From Candidatus Caenarcanales bacterium (GTDB lineage: Bacteria > Cyanobacteriota > Vampirovibrionia > 2-02-FULL-35-15): DNA of 64,000 nt. The notes beneath the pieces are model-generated. The model did not search any database, was not told the DNA's origin, and worked only from the letters and a program-made list of their open reading frames with translations. The stretch is taken from positions 17,305 to 81,304 of the forward strand of contig JAGVKQ010000022.1 in the NCBI GenBank assembly GCA_020050435.1. The letters are read 5' to 3'. Position 1 is the stretch's first letter. The number at the start of each line of letters is the position of its first letter. Below, one piece after another: positions 22,691 to 38,834 of the stretch. The position numbers and the translations under genes are program-made.

Positions 22691-22767
22691 GGCAGGTGTC
22701 GCCAAGTGGTTAAGGCCCCGGGTTGTGGTTCCGGTATTCGCGGGTTCAAGTCCCGTCATCTGCCCCA
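22691..22767 (+). tRNA. tRNA-His (anticodon GTG) with encoded G-1 and 3' CCA
   Basis: A cloverleaf folded by hand. Acceptor GCAGGTG/CATCTGC (with G-1 before it), U8, a D-arm, anticodon stem CCGGG/TCCGG with loop TTGTGGT (anticodon GTG), a 5-nt variable loop, T-arm GCGGG-TTCAAGT-CCCGT, discriminator C, then CCA. Confidence 0.85.
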
Positions 22768-24348
22768 TATGGGAAGAACAGAGGCACAAGCCTCTTCCTT
22801 CCCTTTATTTAAGCCACTTTCAGCTAGTTCTAACCTAACATTTGCATTATCAAGCTCTTCTTTGTTTTCAAGAATAGGTTTTAGCCAGAAAATAGGCTCT
22901 AGCTTTAGTTTCCTGTCTTTTAAAACAAAGTTCAATCCAAGTGAAGCAAGTACTTCTTTCCTCTTTTGTATATCGCCATTATCAAAGGCTTTCTTAGCGT
23001 TTTCAGCGAAATAAAAAACCCTTTGTGTAAGCTCAATCCAATCTAATGACCTTTTGTGAGTCTGGTCAAGTCTTTGCTTTATATTGACTAGTTCATTCTT
23101 TAAAGTCTCTTGCTCTTTGATAAATTGTTCATCTGTAATCAACTCACGATATCTCATTTGAATCAGATTATCCAATTGCTTTTGAGTTTGTACATAAGAT
23201 TTTTGTTGCATTTCATATTCTTGATTTCTAGCTTTTACTTCATTATCATTTGCTTCTTTTACTTTTCTTACTGCCCATTCTCTAAATTTTGTACTTATAC
23301 CAAATCCACTTATTTCTTTTAATATTTGTTTTTCCATATCACCTAAAGTAATACTTGGTTGATTACATTTATAGTTTTTATTTTTCTTAGTGCATCTGTA
23401 ATAAATATATTTTGCTATATCACCAGTGCTTTTTATATGTTTAAATTTCTCTTCAGCCGTTACATAACATCCACATTCACCACATTTAATCATTCCAGTA
23501 AAAGAAAACTCATGAGTTTTAGCTCTTGGTTTACCTTCTTTTCCTAACAAGAATTGAACCTTATCAAATTCATTTAAAGTAACCATAGCTTCATGCTGAC
23601 CAGGATAATTAAGCCCGCTATAACTAACTATTCCAGTATAAAAAACATTAGTAAATATTCTATATATGCTGCTATTAGATAGAGGTTTATTTCCACCCTT
23701 CTTACCTCTTCTAGTTCTAAATTTCCAATCTTTATTTGCAATCTCTATAATTTTTGGTGGATTATAATTTCCTGTAAGCATTAAATCCCACATTTTGCGT
23801 ACCAAATGACATCTTTCAGGATCATTAACTATAGTTCTAGTAGCAATATCATTTATGTAGCCAGTAGGTGCATAGCAAGGAAGCCAGCCTTTTTTTACTT
23901 TACTTTCTAATCCACGTTTTGTATTTCTTTTTAAATCAATGATAAATTGATTAGCCATTCCACTTTCAACACTAAACAATAAAACATTGTCTTCAGGTTT
24001 ATATTCTCTGGTATAAGTCCTTATAGATTTAATCGTACCTTCTTGAAGTAGCCAACTGATTTTTCCACTATCTATAGGATTTCTGCTTAATCTGTTTATT
24101 TCCCAGCATAAAATACCTTGAGCTTCTCCCTTTTCTATCCTTTGAAGCATATTTTCAAAAATGGGTCTATTGTTTGGCAATTTAGCAGATTTAGCTTCAG
24201 TAAAAGTTTTAACAATTTTTAAATCAAATCTCTTCGCTACTTCTTTAAGTTTATCTAACTGATCTTCAATAGACTGAACCTGCCTATCTTCAGCTTCCTG
24301 AGATTTTCTTACATAAATAAAATATTTAATTTGATTATTTTCTGACAT
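22756..24348 (-). CDS. large serine recombinase (phage-type serine integrase)
   Basis: An N-terminal resolvase catalytic domain (YVRKSQEAEDRQVQSIEDQ…), a recombinase domain, a Cys-rich zinc ribbon (CGECGCY…C…C) and a C-terminal coiled coil. The C-terminal 12 bp overlap the tRNA-His 3' end. Confidence 0.9.
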   Translation of the reverse strand: MSENNQIKYFIYVRKSQEAEDRQVQSIEDQLDKLKEVAKRFDLKIVKTFTEAKSAKLPNNRPIFENMLQRIEKGEAQGILCWEINRLSRNPIDSGKISWLLQEGTIKSIRTYTREYKPEDNVLLFSVESGMANQFIIDLKRNTKRGLESKVKKGWLPCYAPTGYINDIATRTIVNDPERCHLVRKMWDLMLTGNYNPPKIIEIANKDWKFRTRRGKKGGNKPLSNSSIYRIFTNVFYTGIVSYSGLNYPGQHEAMVTLNEFDKVQFLLGKEGKPRAKTHEFSFTGMIKCGECGCYVTAEEKFKHIKSTGDIAKYIYYRCTKKNKNYKCNQPSITLGDMEKQILKEISGFGISTKFREWAVRKVKEANDNEVKARNQEYEMQQKSYVQTQKQLDNLIQMRYRELITDEQFIKEQETLKNELVNIKQRLDQTHKRSLDWIELTQRVFYFAENAKKAFDNGDIQKRKEVLASLGLNFVLKDRKLKLEPIFWLKPILENKEELDNANVRLELAESGLNKGKEEACASVLPIWGR

Positions 24349-24356: not shown

Positions 24357-24446
24357 ATCCCTGTGAAATGATCAATGAGTTCATTCATTGGTTTATCTTT
24401 CCTATTCTTTTTGCCTTAGGGAAGTTACCTTTTGGTACTTCCTTTT

Positions 24447-24482
24447 TAGGCTCTTCTTTAGGCTCTTCTTTAGGCTCTTCAG
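24447..24482. repeat. 12-bp tandem repeat x3 (ctcttctttagg), giving EEPK repeats in the small minus-strand ORF 24385..24606
   Basis: Direct tandem copies are visible. Which overlapping small ORF is real is ambiguous. Confidence 0.5.
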
Positions 24483-24621
24483 TATTTCTAGTAATACTTG
24501 TGTGTATTTCTCCTATCACTCCACCGACAATTACAACAAGTATGGGCAAGGCTACAATTGCCATTCCAATGTCTACTAGTTGTCCTATACCTGCTCCTAT
24601 TGTCATATATTAATCCTTTTT

Positions 24622-25599: not shown

Positions 25600-27417
25600 C
25601 TATTCATCTTTAACTAAAATATACTTAGTACTATAATCACCTTTCCCACCAGAACCTACTTTTAATATAAGTTCTTGCGTTTGCAGCATTTTCAAAGCTT
25701 TAGTTATTGCATCTTTACTAAACTCTTTTGGAACTAATTGCTCATCTATCTCTTTCCTTAAAAGTCCAAGTGGCACATTTTTTAGAATTTCCATGATTCG
25801 TTTACTGGCTTTTTCAGATTCCTTTGGCTTGCTATCAAACACAAAATTACTAGCACTACCCTCACTCTCAAAAAATATTAAATTATTCTCATCTGTAGCA
25901 CGTCTGATTGCGATAGGCTCAACTTCTGGACCCTCTTTAATCTTATTGGGTGTTAGCTTCAATAAAGGGCCGTCTGTGGCTTTCTCAACTACTAAATGGG
26001 TATCTAGGTAAGAAAGGATATCTGAAGAACCTCTCAATTTTTGAGAAGCTTCTTCCCTTATGTCCTTTACTTTCTTTTTGTGGTGATGTGTAAATATTAC
26101 AGAAATTCCGAAAGTTCTACATTTTGCAATTTGACTGAAAAAATTATTTGTAACTTCTGACTCATTTTCTGATCCTGTTATAAATCGCCTGAAAGAATCC
26201 ATAATCAATACTTTAACGCCTCTTTGAGCTGCTTTCTCTAAAGTCTGATCCCATATCTTACCGTCTTTATGCAGAGTAACTACTTGATCGCATGAAAGAA
26301 TAATATCTTCACTTTCAATAACTTCTTTACCACCTCTCATACATTCAAATCTTTTTTTAAGATTAGATAAAATACTTTCTTTATCTAACATCCATACTTT
26401 TTGTTTTTCACACTGGAATTTATTTAGCCACATCCCGCCAGTAGCAAAACAAATTGCTAAATCTAAAAGCAAGAAAGTTTTATAACTTGCTGGATCACCA
26501 GAAAGCATTGCTATACCTTTTTCTTTCAATAAAGTATCTACTATCCATTTAGGTTCGGGGAAATCTGATCTAAGTAAATCTCTAATAGTAATTGGATTTA
26601 ACCAAGAGCCTGGTTCATGAGCTGATTCATATTGCTCTAATGCTTCAGAAGCAATTCTAGAATTACTAGCACTATTGAAGATAGAACCAAGTTCACCTTT
26701 TATATATGCTTCAGCATAAGTAGAAGCACATTTATCTTTAGCAAATGCTTTGAACATTTCCCATGCAAGTTTTTGTTGTTTAGGGAAACCTGAATGTAAT
26801 TGCTGTGCTATTAAATATAAGTCAGTATTCCTTTGTCCTTCTGGAATCTCTGCTGATTCTAATATATCTTGAATCTTCCCTTTGTTAGCAGAACCATCTT
26901 CAAAACATGATTCTAAAAGTTCGTAAGGTAATTCTGGAATGTCATCCCATGATTCAGGGAACTCAGTAATTTTATAAGCATTGCCATTTGGATGTATTGA
27001 TGGTGGAGCAAGTACATAACCACCTTCACCACGGAAATCTACACCAGGAATTCTCCTGCAGAAGTTAGGAAGTGATTTCCCTTTTGGCATTTTAAAATAA
27101 AAATGTAATCCACCATTTCCAGTTTCTACAGTAAAAGTATATGGAAGCTTAGAAATTAATTCATTTGCTTCTGGTGTTGATTCATCAATGTCTATTACAC
27201 AAATGTTTGATAAATTACCAGTAATGATTGCTATATTTTGAAACTCTTTAAACCATTCAGTTATTTCTTCAATGGTTGGATGTCTTTCTTGGTATTCCTT
27301 CCACTTCATTGAAGGGATTTTAGATTTAGGTGGAAGAGCAAGAATTGATAATCCTTGACTGCAATAATAAGTTACTAAATTTCTAAATGTTTTATACTGC
27401 TCTTCTGATTGTTCCAT
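25600..27417 (-). CDS. bifunctional primase-polymerase (PrimPol) N-domain fused to a RecA-like P-loop ATPase (replicative helicase-like)
   Basis: The N-terminus (…LALPPKSKIPSMKWKEYQ…NIAIITG…VIDIDES…) is prim-pol-like. The middle (…AMLSGDPASYKTFLLLDLAICFATG…) is a P-loop/RepA-like domain. This pairing is typical of integrated elements. Confidence 0.75.
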   Translation of the reverse strand: MEQSEEQYKTFRNLVTYYCSQGLSILALPPKSKIPSMKWKEYQERHPTIEEITEWFKEFQNIAIITGNLSNICVIDIDESTPEANELISKLPYTFTVETGNGGLHFYFKMPKGKSLPNFCRRIPGVDFRGEGGYVLAPPSIHPNGNAYKITEFPESWDDIPELPYELLESCFEDGSANKGKIQDILESAEIPEGQRNTDLYLIAQQLHSGFPKQQKLAWEMFKAFAKDKCASTYAEAYIKGELGSIFNSASNSRIASEALEQYESAHEPGSWLNPITIRDLLRSDFPEPKWIVDTLLKEKGIAMLSGDPASYKTFLLLDLAICFATGGMWLNKFQCEKQKVWMLDKESILSNLKKRFECMRGGKEVIESEDIILSCDQVVTLHKDGKIWDQTLEKAAQRGVKVLIMDSFRRFITGSENESEVTNNFFSQIAKCRTFGISVIFTHHHKKKVKDIREEASQKLRGSSDILSYLDTHLVVEKATDGPLLKLTPNKIKEGPEVEPIAIRRATDENNLIFFESEGSASNFVFDSKPKESEKASKRIMEILKNVPLGLLRKEIDEQLVPKEFSKDAITKALKMLQTQELILKVGSGGKGDYSTKYILVKDE

Positions 27418-30610: not shown

Positions 30611-30640
30611 CCCCGCTGCTTGCGGCGGGGTTCTTCATTG
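30611..30640 (+). terminator. GC hairpin ccccgc-tgcttgcg-gcgggg followed by a T-rich tract
   Basis: A perfect 6-bp GC stem in AT-rich context, downstream of the small-gene run. Confidence 0.4.
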
Positions 30641-30657
30641 GAGCATATAATAAAAGT

Positions 30658-31137
30658 ATGAAATTCATCGAAAGCGATTTTCTTAAATTTGTTGTAGTTA
30701 TTCTTTCAATATCTTTATGCATGGTTAGCAGTGCTAACGCTCAATTTATTGACACAAAGTGGACTGTTGTTAAATCTGTAGGTGAAGCATGGTTTGAAAA
30801 ACCTAAAAATGTTATTGGAAAAACACAAGAATTTTACAAAGGTTGGGCAGATGGTTACTTTTTTCAGTGTGATTATGAGGGACAATCTGCTACATATACA
30901 AAATATTCTCTAAATCAATTTTTCAATAATCCTGAGTTTGAAATCTTTAAAAAAGAAAAAAACAACTTGTCATTTTCTGGTAAAAATATATTTGTTCATA
31001 GAATATCTTGCAATGGTAACAAAAGAATACTTTATCCCTTTGTTACAGTAGAGCCAGGTAATAAGGCTTATTATTTATTTGAAGGTGCTATATACATTTT
31101 AGAGTACAAAAAAAATTATAAGCAGAGAAAATATTGA
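30658..31137 (+). CDS. secreted hypothetical protein
   Basis: A signal peptide. Confidence 0.45.
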   Translation: MKFIESDFLKFVVVILSISLCMVSSANAQFIDTKWTVVKSVGEAWFEKPKNVIGKTQEFYKGWADGYFFQCDYEGQSATYTKYSLNQFFNNPEFEIFKKEKNNLSFSGKNIFVHRISCNGNKRILYPFVTVEPGNKAYYLFEGAIYILEYKKNYKQRKY

Positions 31138-31233: not shown

Positions 31234-34113
31234 ATGCTGGAAAGGTTTACAACTGAAAATATAAATAAACTTGGTGATGAGAGTTTTGAGGAGTTATGCA
31301 AAGCTCTTTTATGCAAGGTAATAGGCCCAGGGATTAAGCCATTTGGTGCTGGTAAAGATGGGGCAAGAGAAGCTACATTTGAAGGTAAAGCTTCATACCC
31401 AAATGAACAATCTGCTTGGGGAGGCAAGTGGATATTTCAGGTTAAGTATGCTGACTATTCAGTTGATCCAAGTAAAGCAAGAACAAGAATTAAAGGATAC
31501 ATAGATTCTGAATTAGAAAAGATCAAAGACTATGGATATTTTAAAGATAATAAATGTGATAACTATATTCTTATTACTAATGTTCCCTTTACTGGTGAGA
31601 ATAAGGTGGGAATGCATGACAAAATATCAGAAAAGATACAAGAAATTGAAAATAACTTTCCTGGTAAAAAAATTGATTACTGGGATGGTGAACAAATAAG
31701 AAATTATTTAAGAGCATATCCTGACTTGAAGGAAGAATTTTTTCCATCCATTTCTCAAAAAATACTAGATGAAGTTATTAAGCAGAATCAAACTAGTATT
31801 AGGGTAGAACAAAAGTTAGATGCTACTGGTAACAACAAAGATAAACTTGAATTAATATCTTCACAAATAAGTGAATCAAAGTCATTAATTGATAATAACA
31901 AACCAGGTTCAGCATTGATAATTTTAGAAAAGGTACAAGAAAGGTTTTTAAATGTTTTAGATGATGAAAGTAAGTTTAAATTGTTTACCAATATAGGTGT
32001 AGCAAAATCTAAATTTATCAAAGATGGTTCTGAACTAACATTTAAGAGGCATATAGCACAATGCTTTGATGATGCATTAAAAATTAAACCAAATGATGAA
32101 AAAGCATTATGCAATGCAGCTATTGGAAATCAAATGATAGGAAATGATAAAAGAGCTAATGAGTTAGCTATGAAAGTCTTAGAAATAAACAACTCCTCAG
32201 ATAAGGCTTTTTCAATAATAGTTAATTCCTTAAGTAAGAGAGGAAAACTATTAGAAGATATCCTGAATGAAATTCCTGAAAAATATCATAGCCAACCAAG
32301 AACTGCATGTAGTATAGGTACTTCTCTGTTTATAAAAGATAAAGTAAAGGATGCTAGAGATTGGTATGAAAAATCTATCAATAGCAGAAATGAGTCAGAT
32401 GAAGACTTGGCAAAAAAACTATATTCTACAGCTACTGTTCAATTGGCAATCAATGAAAAGAAACATAAAGGATTTGTTTCTGAAGTTTTAAAAAAAGACT
32501 TAGAAAAGTCAATTAATTATTTAACAGAGATATGGAAAAAGTTTTATAAGACAGAACTAATGCATCTGTATATTGATGTTCTTGGTGAAAGAGCAAATGC
32601 TAAGCACTATTTAGGAGAAACAAAAGAAGCAATTAGAGATATGGATTTTGCATTAGAGCAGGAGCCAGATAATCTCTTAGTTTTAGTTAATAAAGCAAAT
32701 ATGGAGCTTTCAATAGGAGAAATTAGTAATAAGACTATAGAAAAAGTTGAAAAGGTTTACAAAGGTAGTGGGCATGATCAACTCCCACTGTTATTAATAG
32801 ATTTATTGGTTGTTGCAGGAAAAGAAAAAGATGCCATTCCTCTTACTGAACAATATATCTTAGATTACCCAAATAACTTATACATAGAAGACATTAAACA
32901 AAAACTAGTAGTTTTGTATTTAAGAAGGAGTACGAAAGAATCCTTGGAGAAGGCTAAGGCTCTCAACAAAGAATTGATAAAGCAAAATCCAAAGTCTATA
33001 TTACACTTTATTGATGAAGCAGAAATAAAAAGGGTTGAAGGAGCTGATGGTAAAAGCTCGCTGTTAGTAGCAATAAAAAGTGTTAGTGATGAAGCACTAT
33101 CTGGAGAACTGCTTTCACTGGCTGAAACGCTATTTAAGTTTGGCTTATTTAAAGAAGCTGCTGATATTTATAGCAGGATTACAGATTTGAACATTCCTAG
33201 CCCAAATTTGGAAAAATTGTTATCTGCCTTATCAAGATCTGATCAAGGAAATGAAGCTATGAACATATGTAGAAATTTGCGTTTAATTCATGGTCCGCTG
33301 ATTGGATATTCAGATGAAGAAGCAAGACGCTTAATAAATAAAGGTGTAAAAGAAAATAAAAAAGAATTGATTGAAACTGCAAGAGATATTTTTGAAAAAC
33401 TTATAGAGAAGCATGATAATGACATTTGGCTGAAAATTAACAAAGCAACTTGTGATTTTCACTTAGAAGATTTTAGTAAACTCAATACTTTCCTTGAGAG
33501 TGACATTAATATGGATTCATTCGATGAAGAAATGTTTGTTAATCTTTCAGTAATGCTTCTTCAGCGTAACTATTTTGAAAAAGCTGTTCATGTAATTTAT
33601 GAGGGATGGCGTAGATATCCAACTAGCTTAATAATTGGAGATAAATACAATGCAATATTTCTGTATTCATCTAGTCATTTAAATATTGAAGAATTTAGAA
33701 AAATCCAAAAAGCTAATTATGGTTGTGCCATATGTATAGAAGGGGAGAGGAATAAAGATCAATGGTTCTTAATTGAAAATAGGCAGGATATAAGACAAGA
33801 GATTAATGAAATAAATATGAGTAAAAGTAAAAGTTTAGTTGAGCAATTTTTAGGAAAGTCTATTGGCGATGAAGTTACTATAGGTGGAACTCTTGGATTA
33901 TCTAATAAAAGAAAAATTAAAGATATAATCCATAAATATGCTTATGCTTTTGACAAATGTGTGGAATATACAGATATTCATAATCCATCTGGCACTCAAA
34001 TGGTAAGAGCACATATAGATGAGAATATTACACCAGAGGACTTTATTTCACTATTAAATCAATCTGTGGAAGAAATGAAGAAAAGAACATCAAGCAACGA
34101 AGATATTGAATAA
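31234..34113 (+). CDS. Mrr-type restriction endonuclease (PD-(D/E)xK) N-domain fused to a long TPR-like repeat array (959 aa)
   Basis: The N-terminal ~160 aa are collinear with the Mrr catalytic-domain pattern (GDESFEELCKALL…GAGKDGAREATFEG…WIFQVKY…NYILITNVPFTGENK…IDYWDGEQI). The remainder is helical repeat sequence with TPR-like periodicity. No Walker A motif was found. Confidence 0.6.
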   Translation: MLERFTTENINKLGDESFEELCKALLCKVIGPGIKPFGAGKDGAREATFEGKASYPNEQSAWGGKWIFQVKYADYSVDPSKARTRIKGYIDSELEKIKDYGYFKDNKCDNYILITNVPFTGENKVGMHDKISEKIQEIENNFPGKKIDYWDGEQIRNYLRAYPDLKEEFFPSISQKILDEVIKQNQTSIRVEQKLDATGNNKDKLELISSQISESKSLIDNNKPGSALIILEKVQERFLNVLDDESKFKLFTNIGVAKSKFIKDGSELTFKRHIAQCFDDALKIKPNDEKALCNAAIGNQMIGNDKRANELAMKVLEINNSSDKAFSIIVNSLSKRGKLLEDILNEIPEKYHSQPRTACSIGTSLFIKDKVKDARDWYEKSINSRNESDEDLAKKLYSTATVQLAINEKKHKGFVSEVLKKDLEKSINYLTEIWKKFYKTELMHLYIDVLGERANAKHYLGETKEAIRDMDFALEQEPDNLLVLVNKANMELSIGEISNKTIEKVEKVYKGSGHDQLPLLLIDLLVVAGKEKDAIPLTEQYILDYPNNLYIEDIKQKLVVLYLRRSTKESLEKAKALNKELIKQNPKSILHFIDEAEIKRVEGADGKSSLLVAIKSVSDEALSGELLSLAETLFKFGLFKEAADIYSRITDLNIPSPNLEKLLSALSRSDQGNEAMNICRNLRLIHGPLIGYSDEEARRLINKGVKENKKELIETARDIFEKLIEKHDNDIWLKINKATCDFHLEDFSKLNTFLESDINMDSFDEEMFVNLSVMLLQRNYFEKAVHVIYEGWRRYPTSLIIGDKYNAIFLYSSSHLNIEEFRKIQKANYGCAICIEGERNKDQWFLIENRQDIRQEINEINMSKSKSLVEQFLGKSIGDEVTIGGTLGLSNKRKIKDIIHKYAYAFDKCVEYTDIHNPSGTQMVRAHIDENITPEDFISLLNQSVEEMKKRTSSNEDIE

Positions 34114-34131
34114 CTAATATAGGTATTAATT

Positions 34132-35484
34132 ATGGATGACAAAGAAAAATTTATAAATAGAATTATTAATAGCATTCTTAAGCCAATAGAAGAAAGACAT
34201 AAAGAAAATATATATAGTGAAATATTTGAAGTGGTTTGCTATGACTTAGGATTAAATGCTAATGATTTAATTGCAGAAGAAAATAAGTTCAATTTGGGAG
34301 GAGTTTTCACTCACATACCTTCTTTATCAGACATAGCAAATGGTGATTTTAATACTGTTCTAGAAATAATTGAATCAATTTATGCATATTTCAACTTTTC
34401 TCCTGAAATTCAATCGGAAATATCCTCCAAAGTATTTTCTGCACTAGAACTTGCTAAAGATGCTTTGGGTATTAAATGGAAAAATGGAAGCTTTATAAGA
34501 GAAAGTACAAGTAATGCAATTAAAGAAGAAATATCCTTTATTGTTAACAACGAAAGAAACAAGTTTATTGAAAGAGTAGCATCAAAGATATTTGAAGAAA
34601 TTCAAAGAAGACCAAACTACAAAGAATTGCTAAGTGAAGCTTGTTTCTATTTAGGGATAAATTTAAAAAGTAAGATAAAAAAAAGATTTACAGGGTTAGG
34701 GACTAATACTTATTACCCTCATTTAGTAGATTTAGTTAAAAGTAATTTTGTAGAGGCAGTAAAGTTAATTATTTTTTTGTTAGAATATTTTGAAGATGAC
34801 AAAACTACAAAAGATAAAATACTACAATATTTAGATCTATCTTTATCTCTTTCGCCAATTGATATAGGCATTAAACTAAAAGATTTTAAATTGCTTTTTT
34901 CAGGCTCAGATGAAGTTATAAATATTAAAAATATTAATAATTTAGATAGAATCCAAGATATAACAATAGACGAATTCAGTAGAAAGGCAAACGAAAAACC
35001 TTTAAGATTACATATAGATGACATCTTTTCATTTGCCCAAGTAAAAAATATTAAAGTAAGCGATATTAAGGATCTACTTCCTATATCTCTACTTGAAGAT
35101 GAAATTCAAAAGCATTTTGAAGATATTATTGCTGAGCCTGACCATAAAAAAGATTGGGGTGGTGAAATTAATGATTTATACACATCTCGTTTACAAATTA
35201 TAGAAGGGAAAAGAGTTACAGCTGCCTTTGCTTTGAAAGGACGTGGAACTCCTGGAAGATTACGAATAAAAAATTGTGGTAAAAATGGAGATCAGCTTTT
35301 AAGACTTTTTGAATCGCCAGCTATACTTTTTGTAATTCAACATATAGGTGTAATAACAGAAGAAGTTATAAAGGATGTAGAAGGCAAAACAGCACTTTTA
35401 AGATACAAAGGTATTGAGGCATATTATTGTATTATTGATGGACATGATACGGTAAGAATTTTGAAAGCCTACAATAAACTATAA
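34132..35484 (+). CDS. hypothetical protein (450 aa), tightly linked to the Mrr-TPR gene
   Basis: It starts 18 bp after the upstream stop. The C-terminal region has a weak D…ExK-like arrangement (…EINDLYTSRLQIIEGKR…); no confident domain call. Confidence 0.5.
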   Translation: MDDKEKFINRIINSILKPIEERHKENIYSEIFEVVCYDLGLNANDLIAEENKFNLGGVFTHIPSLSDIANGDFNTVLEIIESIYAYFNFSPEIQSEISSKVFSALELAKDALGIKWKNGSFIRESTSNAIKEEISFIVNNERNKFIERVASKIFEEIQRRPNYKELLSEACFYLGINLKSKIKKRFTGLGTNTYYPHLVDLVKSNFVEAVKLIIFLLEYFEDDKTTKDKILQYLDLSLSLSPIDIGIKLKDFKLLFSGSDEVINIKNINNLDRIQDITIDEFSRKANEKPLRLHIDDIFSFAQVKNIKVSDIKDLLPISLLEDEIQKHFEDIIAEPDHKKDWGGEINDLYTSRLQIIEGKRVTAAFALKGRGTPGRLRIKNCGKNGDQLLRLFESPAILFVIQHIGVITEEVIKDVEGKTALLRYKGIEAYYCIIDGHDTVRILKAYNKL

Positions 35485-35851
35485 ATATCCTCAGTCAAGG
35501 AAATACCCTATGCTACCAAGCCATCCAAATGACCCCTTGCACCCAAATACCCTGGGGTGATTTATGTTCATAAGGACTTTAAATAGTGTAAGCAGAAGTA
35601 GGGTAGAAAATTAAACAAATTACTATTTACCATCTCAAGTCTCAAGCGGGGACTCTATAACCGAAGCCCGCTATATCAAACCCAATACCCAAATACCTGG
35701 GGGGCTGTTATATCCATAGTGTTTGAAAAGTAACCTGTTTCAAAGCAATAGTAATGGACTGCTACTCCTAAAAACACTATGCTTTTTAGGAGTAAGGTAG
35801 GAGACTTAAGCCACATCTCTATAATCAGGAATATACAAATGCCCCTTATGA

Positions 35852-35901
35852 TTTATAATTGCAGTTCTAACACGTTCTAGGGTGTTGCCCATTTTTTATT
35901 C
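35852..35901 (+). promoter_or_regulatory. conserved ~50-bp upstream element, copy A (…ataattg…ttctaacacgttctagggtgttgcccattttttattc)
   Basis: A homologous copy B lies at 38041-38101. Both lie 80-120 bp upstream of + strand genes (36019, 38184). Confidence 0.45.
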
Positions 35902-36018
35902 TTTATGATGTTTTACTGTTTCATTAAAAAATGTAATCTAAATATCTAAATTTCTTAATATTTATAGCTTGACTTTGTATTTTTTATTGTTTATTCTCAA
36001 ATTAAATGACCATATATT

Positions 36019-37041
36019 ATGAGTAAATTAACTATATTACCTTTGGATAGGTATCTTTCATTGGCATGGTTTCATCTGGTAAGGAGTTGTGAACCATCCA
36101 CTAATCGTGTAGCTGTTGATTTTGACCAGACTTTTCCATCTGAAAGATTGGAAGAATTGGTTAGTCATACGCAAAGTGGAGGTAATGATGGAATGTTACC
36201 TTTTCGAGCGGTGGGTTATACAAAAGCAGACTATGCAAACTTAGTAGGAGTGGAAAGCTTTAGACAATTAAGAGAAACTCTTGCTAAATTAGCAAATCCA
36301 AATGAAACAGAAGAAATACTATCTTTAATTTTAGAAACAAAAGCAGCAGCAAGAAACATTGAACCTAAAACATTTTTCTCAACTAATGGAACTCCTATTA
36401 ATACTTGGGAATTTGTTGAGATGTTTCCTCAATTTACAGATTTACGCTATATTGAATATCTTGACCCTAATACTATTTTGCGAATACAAGAGCATGCAAG
36501 AAGATATTTGTTTCGTGAATATAAAATAGATAAAACTGGAGAACCCTCTGGAGCTGAAAGATTACTTCTTGCAAATGAAGGTGATGAGGGTTTGTATAAA
36601 TCTGCTGCAGTTGGTTTTAAAAGAAGTGTGCCTCTAGATACGCAGCAATTTTTTTTAGACTTAAATTACAATTTAAAATATGCTCAAGATATTCTTACTA
36701 GCAGGATTCATAAGAGAAAAGATGGAGTCATGGTAGATTCAATAATGACAGGACCTCTTTTTGGTGATGATACGAATTCAGATATTAGGTGGATTAGTCT
36801 TTGGGTAAAGAATGATCTCCTGGCATTATTTAAGAACATTCAATTTAAAAGAAAAGAAGAATTAGCTGATGAAATCACTTCTACTATTTGGAGAATAACA
36901 GCAGAAGTAGATTTAGAACAAGCAACCCAACTCGCAGATAGAGAAATGAGGGGTCAAATTGAAAGATTCGATATAGATCAAGCCAGTATTTATATACTCA
37001 GGGAGTTATACAATATTGTTCTAAAAATGAAACAAGCATAA
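36019..37041 (+). CDS. hypothetical protein (340 aa), locally higher GC
   Basis: ORF with no motifs. Confidence 0.5.
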   Translation: MSKLTILPLDRYLSLAWFHLVRSCEPSTNRVAVDFDQTFPSERLEELVSHTQSGGNDGMLPFRAVGYTKADYANLVGVESFRQLRETLAKLANPNETEEILSLILETKAAARNIEPKTFFSTNGTPINTWEFVEMFPQFTDLRYIEYLDPNTILRIQEHARRYLFREYKIDKTGEPSGAERLLLANEGDEGLYKSAAVGFKRSVPLDTQQFFLDLNYNLKYAQDILTSRIHKRKDGVMVDSIMTGPLFGDDTNSDIRWISLWVKNDLLALFKNIQFKRKEELADEITSTIWRITAEVDLEQATQLADREMRGQIERFDIDQASIYILRELYNIVLKMKQA

Positions 37042-37071: not shown

Positions 37072-37965
37072 TCAACTCTTCTGTCCTACACCATGAGATG
37101 ACATCATCTCTATCAAACACTGAGTGGGCACAGCAGCAGGAGTAAAATCCACATCAGATATTCTAATAGCGCCATGTTGCAACCCAACTACATTTCCATT
37201 TATATCTACTAATGGACCACCACTAAATCCTGCACTGCTAAATGCATTATGAATAATATGTTCTGTTGATTCTTTTTTCTGCATTTTTTCAAAAGAACCA
37301 ATTGTAATTAATTGTTCACCTTGCATAAGAATTGGATTTCCAATTAAGAATAAAGGCTCCTCTCTATCAGTAGGAATTTGTGGTGAAATTGACAGATGTT
37401 CATTTGTTATATCAGCAATTTCTGGAATTCTAATTAAAGCCATATCAGGTTTATAGGAGTCCATATAAAATGCTCTTTCTGCTAAATGGATAAGCTTTGC
37501 TCCATTGATTTTAACTTTTCTTTTTCCACCGATAATAATTTCAGTCTGCAATTTTGAAAGTAGTTCTCTATCTCTTTCAAAATTATTTTCACATCTAGTT
37601 TCAAATCTTGTATGACCTGGGCGAGTATCTATAAGATCACTTATTACATGGCTGTTTGTAATAATGTATCCATTTTCTGCTGCAATAAATCCTGTTCCAT
37701 ACCAATTATGGTTACTATGATCTCCACAAAACCGAACACTTAAATCATGTGCTCTGCATACATTTTGAAATGCTTTATCGCCGGCTAAATCCTCTCTTCT
37801 GAAAAAGTAAAACCCTATATTTTTATTTGCTAAATCACTTTCTTTTAAAGCTCTTGGTGCATATTGAGGTCTCATAGCGACATGACTTTTTCTAAGTGAT
37901 CCTTGTAAAAAATCAGCATTGGTAGTGGGTCCTGCTGTTCTAATTGTAGGTCTTTGAATTTTCAT
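37072..37965 (-). CDS. trypsin-like (S1 family) serine peptidase without a recognisable signal peptide
   Basis: A His-motif region (TNSHVISD) and the Ser motif GFSGGPLV (GDSGGP-like). The N-terminus is hydrophilic. Confidence 0.65.
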   Translation of the reverse strand: MKIQRPTIRTAGPTTNADFLQGSLRKSHVAMRPQYAPRALKESDLANKNIGFYFFRREDLAGDKAFQNVCRAHDLSVRFCGDHSNHNWYGTGFIAAENGYIITNSHVISDLIDTRPGHTRFETRCENNFERDRELLSKLQTEIIIGGKRKVKINGAKLIHLAERAFYMDSYKPDMALIRIPEIADITNEHLSISPQIPTDREEPLFLIGNPILMQGEQLITIGSFEKMQKKESTEHIIHNAFSSAGFSGGPLVDINGNVVGLQHGAIRISDVDFTPAAVPTQCLIEMMSSHGVGQKS

Positions 37966-38040: not shown

Positions 38041-38101
38041 ATAATTGAACTCGCTGCCGCCGCTGCTCTAACAAGCTCTACAGTGTTGCCCATATTTATT
38101 C
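38041..38101 (+). promoter_or_regulatory. conserved upstream element, copy B (ataattg…gctctaacaagctctacagtgttgcccatatttattc)
   Basis: Matches copy A in three blocks: ataattg, ctctaaca, gtgttgcccat…tttattc. Confidence 0.45.
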
Positions 38102-38183
38102 ATTTACTTATAAATTTGTCAAATCTTCAACACAGTTTAGTAATTAATACTAAGGGGTAGAACTACCTTGGAGGGTTATACCT

Positions 38184-38834
38184 ATGTTTATATTAGAAGT
38201 ATCGCTAAATGGAAACGGAAATGGAAAATCACAGGCCGACTACAATAGAGAATCAGATCAGGGATTAAGAATTCTTAAAGAAGCTACACAAGAATCATCA
38301 ATTTTAAAATGCAAAACCAATTCTTCTAAGATATATAATTTTGCTAAAGAATTTAAAAATCTTCCAACAGATGCACAATTAACTGTTGCAAAATTAATGC
38401 AATGCAGTGTATTGAAAAATAAAGGACTCTCCGCAGAAGAGATTATAGAAAACCCAGAGTTGATTGAAAGAACTCTTTCTGCACCACAGGAACAAGCTCC
38501 TAATGCTGACACTGAAACATGTAATAAGATGAAGCTAATAAATGTAGATAGAAAATTACACAACTTGAAAAAGTATAAGACTTCATTACAAGCATATTAC
38601 AATATGCATGATACTAAGGAAGTTCCTTTTTCATTACCCCAGATAGAGATGCAGATTAGAATGTTTGAAACACTTGAGGAATCAGGTGTAAAAGATATAA
38701 ATCTTCCCTTAAAATCTGTTGAGCAGGAATTAAATGAAGCATCTAAGATATTAAGATCATTGGAAAGGCAAAATGAAGCTCAGGCAAAGGTTATAAGTGA
38801 AATGAAAAAAGCTTTGCTAGAGTACAACTTATAG
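38184..38834 (+). CDS. hypothetical coiled-coil protein
   Basis: ORF only. Confidence 0.45.
   Translation: MFILEVSLNGNGNGKSQADYNRESDQGLRILKEATQESSILKCKTNSSKIYNFAKEFKNLPTDAQLTVAKLMQCSVLKNKGLSAEEIIENPELIERTLSAPQEQAPNADTETCNKMKLINVDRKLHNLKKYKTSLQAYYNMHDTKEVPFSLPQIEMQIRMFETLEESGVKDINLPLKSVEQELNEASKILRSLERQNEAQAKVISEMKKALLEYNL

Follow-up and report, generated by a model that had tools for sequence, protein, structure and literature searches.

Two open reading frames lie on the same strand, separated by an 18-bp gap, within the 64,000-nucleotide stretch of DNA that was analyzed (the window), as the initial annotation had proposed. The first (31234-34113, + strand) encodes a protein of 959 aa (protein 1) and the second (34132-35484, + strand) a protein of 450 aa (protein 2). 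The view that both genes belong to a tRNA-inserted island is well founded. The left end of the island is marked by a tRNA-His gene (22692-22767, + strand; ARAGORN and Rfam), whose 3' end is overlapped by the gene of a large serine recombinase (22756-24348, - strand; Pfam Resolvase, Recombinase, and Zn_ribbon_recom), and the island also carries HTH genes and a replication gene encoding Prim-Pol and AAA_25 domains (25600-27417, - strand; Pfam). The product of the latter is 26% identical over its full length (E 3e-46) to that of a gene located beside P0113, the closest relative of protein 1 (L089:10610-12448). A second copy of the tRNA 3' end, which would mark the right boundary of the island, was not found. 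We found no support for a repressor-controlled promoter ahead of the pair: a strong terminator-like hairpin (30611-30630) intervenes between the HTH-divergent region and the gene of protein 1.

The N-terminal region of protein 1 (residues 1 to ~179; 31234..31770, + strand) had been read as an Mrr-type nuclease domain on the strength of five short signatures, all of which are present (at residues 18, 40, 66, 110, and 147). The expected match to Pfam Mrr_cat (PF04471) was missing from protein 1 at E≤1, an outcome that the initial annotation had also listed as speaking against its reading, and PDB sequence searches with this domain, as a single sequence or as a profile, returned no match. Mrr_cat matches below the threshold were seen in 5 of 16 homologues of the domain (best E 0.029). 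Residues E19, D42, G43, R45, E46, Q69, K71, and N116 are invariant among the aligned homologues, and with them the D…QxK motif. We therefore retain the Mrr-type assignment because of the predicted fold, the conserved residues, and the sub-threshold matches of the homologues, structure having rescued what the Pfam model did not detect. According to the predicted model, the domain has a PD-(D/E)xK fold with D…(Q/E)xK catalytic residues and would be the effector of protein 1.

The same nuclease domain, with 41-58% identity, is found at the N-terminus of nSTAND3 (Avs5-type) and NACHT STAND proteins, which makes the earlier comparison with the Avs logic of a nuclease effector joined to a repeat-based sensor an apt one. 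The reported lack of an NTPase was also confirmed: neither protein 1 nor protein 2 contains a Walker A/B pattern, and a Pfam scan of protein 1 gave no NTPase match. In PADLOC-DB v2, protein 1 only weakly matched one REase-domain model (Aga_REase-TIR, E 1.2e-4), protein 2 had no match, and a known defense system was not found.

The remainder of protein 1 had been described as a TPR array of ~800 aa. TPRs are present, but they account for ~570 aa only and are followed by a GreA/B-C-like domain and a short tail. The linker and TPR core (residues ~180-822; 31771..33700, + strand) has TPR Pfam matches at residues 275-790 and is presumed to be the sensor or scaffold. The GreA/B-C-like domain (residues ~823-905; 33701..33948, + strand) was delimited by alignment to the corresponding segment of the family and contains the stretches '...YGCAICIEG...WFLIENRQD...LVEQFLGKSIGDEVTIGG...KIKDIIHKYAYA'; the C-terminal tail (residues ~906-959, ~55 aa) extends to the stop codon (33949..34113, + strand). 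Pfam and NCBIfam scans of both proteins detected nothing beyond the TPRs of protein 1. A word-index homologue search with full-length protein 1 missed every relative that belongs to the family described below, which only an exhaustive HMMER search brought to light; the word-index search with the C-terminal tail alone retrieved no homologue. Using residues 190-959 as phmmer query, we obtained 653 representatives at E≤1e-3, 91 of them at E≤1e-30, with ~700 residues aligned. No relatives of protein 1 were found on viral contigs.

Judging by these alignments, protein 1 belongs, except for the PIN domain, to the TPR-GreA/B-C-PIN (TGP) family, a conflict system whose PIN domain is Pfam PF20698 (Kaur, Iyer, Burroughs & Aravind, 2021, eLife 10:e70394; PMC8195603) and whose members are predicted bacterial anti-virus sensors (PMC8195603). 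The published PIN domain is present in 122 of the 150 top matches to the core of protein 1. The curated PF20698 model matches long relatives only (P0115, P0116, P0117, and P0141), the last of which combines the PIN domain with the same N-terminal domain as protein 1. A profile built from the family segment corresponding to residues ~823-905 had GreA (1grj, E 9.5e-4) and GreB (2p4v, E 0.021) as its top PDB matches, and 30 of 33 family segments matched Pfam GreA_GreB (PF01272; best 5e-10), while the segment of protein 1 itself stayed below the threshold. At the profile level, this segment can be assigned as a diverged GreA/B-C domain. As the family to which protein 1 belongs had already been described in 2021 (PMC8195603), the suggestion of an undescribed system does not hold.

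Most relatives have a PIN module, which would follow the GreA/B-C domain, the point from which protein 1 continues for only ~55 aa. PF20698 did not match protein 1 at E≤1, an HMM made from the published PIN alignment scored ≤3 bits against protein 1 and protein 2, and the PIN domain was absent from all six frames of the window, with no remnant downstream of protein 1. The two closest relatives of protein 1, P0113 and P0114 (31-39% identical), also lack the PIN domain, and a further relative, P0120, is independently PIN-less. Protein 1, P0113, and P0114 share a common end point and a conserved tail, have more than 200 invariant columns over their whole length, and retain intact catalytic residues. 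From this pattern of sequence conservation, the PIN-less form appears to be stable in these three proteins. In two disrupted TGP loci (L094 and L095) an ORF for the PIN module lies downstream; frameshift or nonsense mutations seem to have disrupted the genes at the junctions, making these loci a weak precedent for a two-gene design.

Protein 2 had been described as lacking a recognizable domain beyond a weak nuclease-like pattern. The hint of a PD-(D/E)xK-like fold was justified, but the protein does contain a conserved domain, which occupies its C-terminal ~160 residues (~290-450; 34999..35484, + strand) and adopts a restriction-endonuclease-like fold in the predicted structure (pLDDT ~95). 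Invariant positions are E322, D341-W-G-G-E345, D348, F366, K369-G370, G383, Q388, and L392, and N385, G386, D387, R391, and Q403 are near-invariant (≥87%). D348 and K369 would fit a canonical D…(D/E)xK triad, but all 70 aligned family members have L or A at position 367; the acid may have been relocated to E345, D341, or D387. The family to which this domain belongs is not covered by a Pfam model and is represented at 401 loci among ~185,000 species genomes, in bacteria and archaea. Its ordinary members have ~290 aa and consist of a variable N-domain and the C-terminal nuclease. Most are solitary, and small HTH proteins are the only conserved neighbors, at a minority of loci. Some family genes are flanked by an N6/N4 DNA methylase gene on one side and a ResIII or UvrD helicase gene on the other (L010 and L076), where their products presumably serve as the nuclease subunit.

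The N-terminal half of protein 2 (residues 1 to ~289; 34132..34998, + strand) is an internally duplicated helical region, residues 3-118 resembling residues 143-253 (self-BLAST, 27% identity, E 3e-11). Its predicted model is helical and of low confidence, and searches for homologues found none, even within the protein 2 family. Foldseek gave no significant PDB match for protein 2. A profile-profile comparison of the nuclease domains of protein 1 and protein 2 yielded a probability of 12%, and no relationship between the two is demonstrable at the sequence level. We also considered that protein 2 might be a diverged or split-off PIN module and rejected this idea, as HMMs of the PIN domain and of the whole TGP tail both scored ~0 bits (-0.2 bits for the tail profile).

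The initial annotation had treated the two genes as a cassette. The N-terminal domain of protein 1 was found at none of 80 loci of the protein 2 family, and the protein 2 domain at none of 25 loci carrying the N-terminal domain of protein 1. A protein-2-type domain was also absent from the examined TGP loci, including those of the closest relatives, P0113 (L096) and P0114. P0113 is followed by an unrelated gene of 415 aa; this was considered as an analogue of protein 2 and dismissed, because it shows no similarity to protein 2 and matches DzbB. After P0114 there is no listed ORF longer than 89 aa in the ~890 bp to the contig end, ORFs running off the contig being unlisted. With no co-occurrence, the cassette cannot be regarded as conserved, the very outcome that had been named in advance as speaking against it. 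Since protein 1 belongs to a described family and protein 2 is its neighbor in this genome only, we conclude that the pair does not constitute a new two-gene system. TGP genes are mostly standalone, without conserved neighbors (PMC8195603).

We consider it moderately probable that the pair consists of two separate defense-type genes carried as cargo by an integrative element, with protein 1 a PIN-less TGP protein and no dedicated system formed by the two. The 18-bp gap and the common orientation would also fit a real two-component system in which protein 2 docks onto protein 1 and replaces the missing PIN domain in trans: protein 2 is placed exactly as the PIN-module ORF is in L094 and L095, its unique N-terminal half could be a dedicated adaptor, and TGP proteins can use an adjacent partner, as Bab/Agp does. 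We nevertheless think this unlikely, given that the gene at the equivalent position is DzbB-like next to P0113 and no listed ORF longer than 89 aa follows P0114, that no TGP or protein-1-type gene lies next to the family gene at any of the 80 protein-2-family loci, that protein 2 resembles neither the TGP tail nor the PIN domain in sequence, and that the splits in L094 and L095 are apparent disruptions and not designed two-gene forms. A particular form of this idea, a two-DNase TGP variant in which protein 2 is recruited via its duplicated helical half and functionally replaces the PIN domain of the sensor, seems quite unlikely; in its broader sense, it would have the conserved PIN-less clade show that the TPR-GreA/B-C core is by itself a sufficient phage sensor.

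Protein 1 could instead be a decaying, non-functional TGP remnant beside unrelated cargo, as it lacks a domain that most relatives have and as truncated or disrupted TGP genes do exist (L094 and L095). The shared stop position, the conserved tail, and the invariant columns and intact catalytic residues at 31-39% identity argue against decay, as does the absence of a downstream PIN remnant in all frames, and we regard this reading as very unlikely. The earlier idea of an undescribed, ATPase-less Avs-like defense system draws on the shared effector domain of nSTAND3 and NACHT STANDs, the absent NTPase motif, and the failure of PADLOC to yield a known system; it is highly improbable in view of the ~700-residue homology of the TPR-GreA/B-C core to the 2021 family, the Pfam entry for the PIN part of that family, and the lack of conservation of the pair. 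We rate as equally improbable the idea that the pair stabilizes the integrative element as an addiction or toxin module, one protein neutralizing the other, and has no role against phages. Such a module would suit a tandem pair of nuclease-fold proteins on a mobile element beside recombinase and replication genes, but neither protein is similar to known antitoxins, members of both families are found mainly as single genes in diverse surroundings, and one TGP member is experimentally anti-phage.

For the favored reading, two separate defense-type genes, the published TGP model and the experiments on Agp suggest, by analogy, how protein 1 might work. In the TGP model, the PIN domain acts in the first line, by cleaving phage transcripts as they emerge from RNA polymerase (PMC8195603). 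The tested TGP member is the anti-phage protein Agp of the Bab/Agp system of E. coli ECOR25; defense by Bab/Agp requires the GreA/B-C domain, and nothing could be learned from the only PIN mutant tested, an Agp variant, since the altered protein was unstable (bioRxiv 10.1101/2024.11.07.622273). Protein 1 would combine an Mrr-type DNase effector with a TPR core of ~570 aa and the GreA/B-C domain, the latter two monitoring RNA polymerase or a phage factor that targets it. Upon infection, protein 1 may change its state or oligomerize, whereupon the fused nuclease would be set free to cleave DNA; this would stop the phage, and the cell would probably be lost as well (abortive infection). Protein 2 would act as an independent nuclease in vivo, its duplicated helical half presumably serving in target recognition or regulation.

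The PIN-less clade, with 31-39% identity and an intact fused DNase, offers a natural means of finding out whether infection sensing and effector activation require more than the TPR-GreA/B-C core. As its genes are at times located between a methylase and a helicase, the protein 2 family is a candidate for an uncharacterized restriction nuclease module. Both points are incremental additions to known kinds of systems and no large surprise.

The position of some protein-2-family genes between methylase and helicase genes (L010 and L076) recalls type III-like restriction-modification systems, although no methylase or helicase gene adjoins that of protein 2 in the window. Like Mrr, type IV, and type IIS-like enzymes (AF1548, 1y88; AspBHI; MspJI; the FokI cleavage domain), both nuclease domains are predicted to adopt the alpha-beta-beta-beta-alpha-beta fold, and both finish with an 'xDGxx(I/L)xxxL' segment; protein 1 has the D…QxK residues, and the ~290-aa members of the protein 2 family pair a variable N-domain with a C-terminal nuclease in an Mrr-like layout. 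In contrast to these enzymes, neither domain passes Pfam Mrr_cat, and in the protein 2 family the acid of the (D/E/Q)xK motif is missing and an unusual, invariant D-W-G-G-E…D…K…G-D-Q signature of its own is present. Avs/AVAST proteins (Avs4, PDB 8dgf; nSTAND3 proteins P0002-P0009; NACHT proteins P0010-P0016) also carry N-terminal nucleases, but protein 1 is without a STAND NTPase or Walker motifs; the TGP core covers this region completely and, with its GreA/B-C domain, takes the place of the Avs repeat domain as sensor. Protein 1 also resembles the TGP proteins themselves: the TPR core and GreA/B-C domain of protein 1 are homologous to theirs over ~700 residues, and the variable N-terminal effector slot is filled, REase being among the 13 effector types in the authors' list (PMC8195603). 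Protein 1, P0113, and P0114 differ from other TGP proteins in lacking the C-terminal module of ~360 aa (linker, PIN domain, and tail). In Agp, the N-terminus bears an amyloid motif and the signal goes to Bab, a separate effector; in protein 1, the nuclease is fused to the sensor.

The two open reading frames lie exactly where the initial annotation had placed them, at 31234-34113 (+ strand, 959 aa; protein 1) and 34132-35484 (+ strand, 450 aa; protein 2), 18 bp apart. All five signature strings quoted for protein 1 were found, at residues 18, 40, 66, 110, and 147, and the statement that no NTPase motif is present was confirmed, Walker A and Walker B being absent from both proteins. A word-index search returned no relative spanning residues 180-959 of protein 1, giving the impression of a unique architecture. 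That impression was dispelled by an exhaustive HMMER search using residues 190-959, in which 653 cluster representatives passed E ≤ 1e-3 and 91 passed E ≤ 1e-30; the alignments span about 700 residues, and most of the proteins are about 1300 aa long. Kaur et al. (2021; PMC8195603) described a conflict system, TPR-GreA/B-C-PIN (TGP), whose core of TPRs, GreA/B-C and a novel PIN is constant but evolves rapidly, and whose variable N-terminal effector is one of 13 types, REase among them. A PIN HMM made from their alignment (supplement 13) matched 122 of the 150 best TGP-core relatives (E 1e-8 to 1e-27) at about 130 residues past the GreA/B-C-like segment, and Pfam PF20698 ("PIN domain associated with the TPR-GreAB-C-PIN system") matched the relatives P0115, P0116, P0117, and P0141. 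For the GreA/B-C domain, we used a profile of the family segment equivalent to residues 806-905 of protein 1; its two best PDB matches were E. coli GreA (1grj, E 9.5e-4) and GreB (2p4v, E 0.021), both over the C-terminal domains. Singly, 30 of 33 family segments matched Pfam GreA_GreB (best E 5e-10), the diverged segment of protein 1 itself giving no match. Core homology, the PIN domain of the relatives and the GreA/GreB profile matches together place protein 1, on sequence grounds, in the TGP family. The region first annotated as an array of about 800 residues of TPRs does contain TPRs, and also encloses a GreA/B-C domain; the suggestion of an undescribed system did not survive, the core of protein 1 being that of the family published in 2021.

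The N-terminal domain of protein 1 formally failed the Mrr_cat HMM check, with no Pfam match at E ≤ 1. Among the libraries only PADLOC gave a signal, a weak match (E 1.2e-4) to the REase portion of a protein associated with pAgo. Residues 8-180 share 41-58% identity with the N-termini of ~710-aa nSTAND3 and ~1380-aa NACHT proteins, nSTAND3 being the NTPase of Avs5-type defence proteins. E19, D42, G43, R45, E46, Q69, K71, and N116 are invariant in the alignment of 16 sequences, and the Pfam family seen most often across the homologues was Mrr_cat, at sub-threshold level only (5/16, best E 0.029).

Protein 1 ends about 55 residues past its GreA/B-C domain. Even with every filter disabled, the PIN HMM scored neither protein 1 nor protein 2 above 3 bits, and no reading frame of the window encodes a PIN. 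Closest to protein 1 are P0113 (924 aa; 36-39% identity) and P0114 (950 aa; 31-34% identity); both have its N-domain, stop at the same point and carry its C-terminal tail in conserved form, and the three proteins have more than 200 invariant columns spread over their whole length. The common end point and conserved tail rule out a one-off truncation of protein 1. P0120, which has a different Mrr-like N-domain and a convergent downstream gene, is independently PIN-less, and P0141 combines a protein-1-type N-domain with a PIN domain. Two apparent short TGP forms, P0202 and P0190, have a PF20698 ORF directly downstream. At these two split loci (L094:4029-8055 and L095:5001-9135), the effector-TPR-GreA/B-C ORF is accompanied by a separate PIN ORF that resumes the family tail profile exactly at the upstream stop; the ORFs overlap in L095, which is a nanopore assembly. 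From their sequence these junctions look like disrupted full-length genes, with a frameshift in L095 and an in-frame stop in L094.

The relatives of protein 2 (95 clusters) cover residues ~290-450 only. They are mostly ~290 aa long with the domain always C-terminal, and a few are fused to pentapeptide repeats. Scanning one genome per GTDB species confirmed 401 loci, spread over many phyla of both bacteria and archaea, and no model in Pfam, NCBIfam, or PADLOC covers the domain. Invariant in the family are E322, D341-W-G-G-E345, D348, F366, K369-G370, G383, Q388, and L392, while N385, G386, D387, R391, and Q403 are each kept by 87% or more of the family; all of these residues are present in protein 2. 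Position 367, the acid site of the canonical (D/E)xK, is occupied by L or A throughout the family, whose active site is therefore non-canonical. The N-terminal half of protein 2 (window 34132-34998, residues 1-289) is an internal tandem duplication of a helical unit of ~125 aa (residues 3-118 against 143-253, 27% identity, E 3e-11), without a detectable homologue among 5.8 billion clusters or elsewhere in the protein 2 family. Genomic context is heterogeneous. At L010:5698-10756 and L076:4519-10603 the relative lies between an N6/N4 methylase and a helicase (ResIII and UvrD, respectively), the intergenic distances being -43 to +32 bp; these operons resemble Type III-like restriction-modification with the nuclease encoded separately. 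Elsewhere an Eco57I/MmeI-type methylase lies upstream (L019) or a HEPN/Toprim protein downstream (L029). The family is best read as having a restriction-type DNA nuclease role.

The integrative element proposed initially was borne out by a tRNA-His gene (22692-22767), a large serine recombinase ORF (22756-24348, - strand; Resolvase, Recombinase, and Zn_ribbon_recom domains) whose end lies 12 nt within it at the tRNA 3' end (22756-22767) and, past the recombinase, a replication gene (Prim-Pol/AAA_25) and an HTH gene. A search of the 64-kb window for a repeat of the tRNA 3' end, which would mark the far end of the island, found none. A 12-nt unit repeated three times in tandem (24440-24480) lies inside overlapping small ORFs (24368-24613, +; 24385-24606, -) and reads as an EEPK repeat on the minus strand. 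A repressor-controlled promoter ahead of the cassette found no support: a strong terminator-like hairpin (30611-30630; 8-bp stem, 7 G-C pairs) lies between the HTH-divergent promoter region and protein 1, flanked by small membrane/secreted-protein genes on one side and an ORF at 30658 on the other; promoter-like matches around it are rarer than in shuffled sequence. Directly after protein 2, a 534-bp stretch without ORFs (35485-36018) has higher local G+C, the motif CCCAAATACCCTGGGG at 35542 and a near-copy around 35684; nothing in Rfam matches it, and it may represent either a non-coding RNA or a boundary of the island. A 45-nt direct repeat (35861-35905 and 38062-38106, 76% identical) lies just 5' of two + strand ORFs of unknown function (36019-37041 and 38184-38834) and may be a regulatory element common to two cargo modules. 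The cargo ORFs around a trypsin-like peptidase gene (37072-37965, - strand; Trypsin_2, E 1.8e-15) downstream of the cassette could not be annotated.

The adjacency and position of protein 2 are the basis for the main rival reading, that it stands in, in trans, for the PIN missing from protein 1. We consider this improbable. Against the two-gene cassette first proposed, the genes co-occurred nowhere outside the window in any set searched: the protein 1 N-domain profile found nothing within 8 kb on either side of 80 protein-2-family genes, the protein 2 C-domain profile nothing at 25 loci with a protein-1-type N-domain or the other fetched TGP loci, and the protein 2 domain is missing from all 150 of the best TGP relatives. 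As a TGP tail module, protein 2 was rejected for lack of similarity (-0.2 bits). Beginning 120 bp after P0113 in L089, and likewise where its element occurs in L096, is a gene for an unrelated 415-aa protein (L089:8896-10143; L096:7872-9131), which matches PADLOC DzbB (Dazbog system; E 1.9e-9). No DzbA partner was noted beside it, and the element there is of the same integrase/Prim-Pol type. After P0114 no ORF above 89 aa is listed in the ~890 bp to the contig end, a weak negative in that ORFs running off the end are not listed. The element of P0113 has a Prim-Pol/AAA_25 gene homologous to that of the window (E 3e-46). The theme common to both is a cargo slot gathering varied defence-type genes, and the pairing of proteins 1 and 2 is locus-specific.

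Two independent defence-type genes are the best-supported reading. For protein 1 we model the mechanism on the published TGP model and on Agp, the tested member from E. coli ECOR25: the Agp/Bab system gives protection from phage T5, which is lost when GreA/B-C carries point mutations (bioRxiv 10.1101/2024.11.07.622273). By analogy, the TPR-GreA/B-C core may sense phage interference with RNA polymerase, which would release the fused Mrr-type DNase and lead to abortive infection; the architecture is observed, and we infer sensing, activation, and DNase activity from these counterparts. Protein 2 would be a stand-alone restriction-type nuclease, its unique N-terminal half presumably setting specificity or regulation. 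Mildly interesting are the conserved PIN-less clade, which bears on the need for PIN in TGP function, and the protein 2 family, a widespread nuclease-fold family without a Pfam model. The architecture of protein 1 is a PIN-less form of the family described in 2021, and its effector-shuffling logic is already well known.
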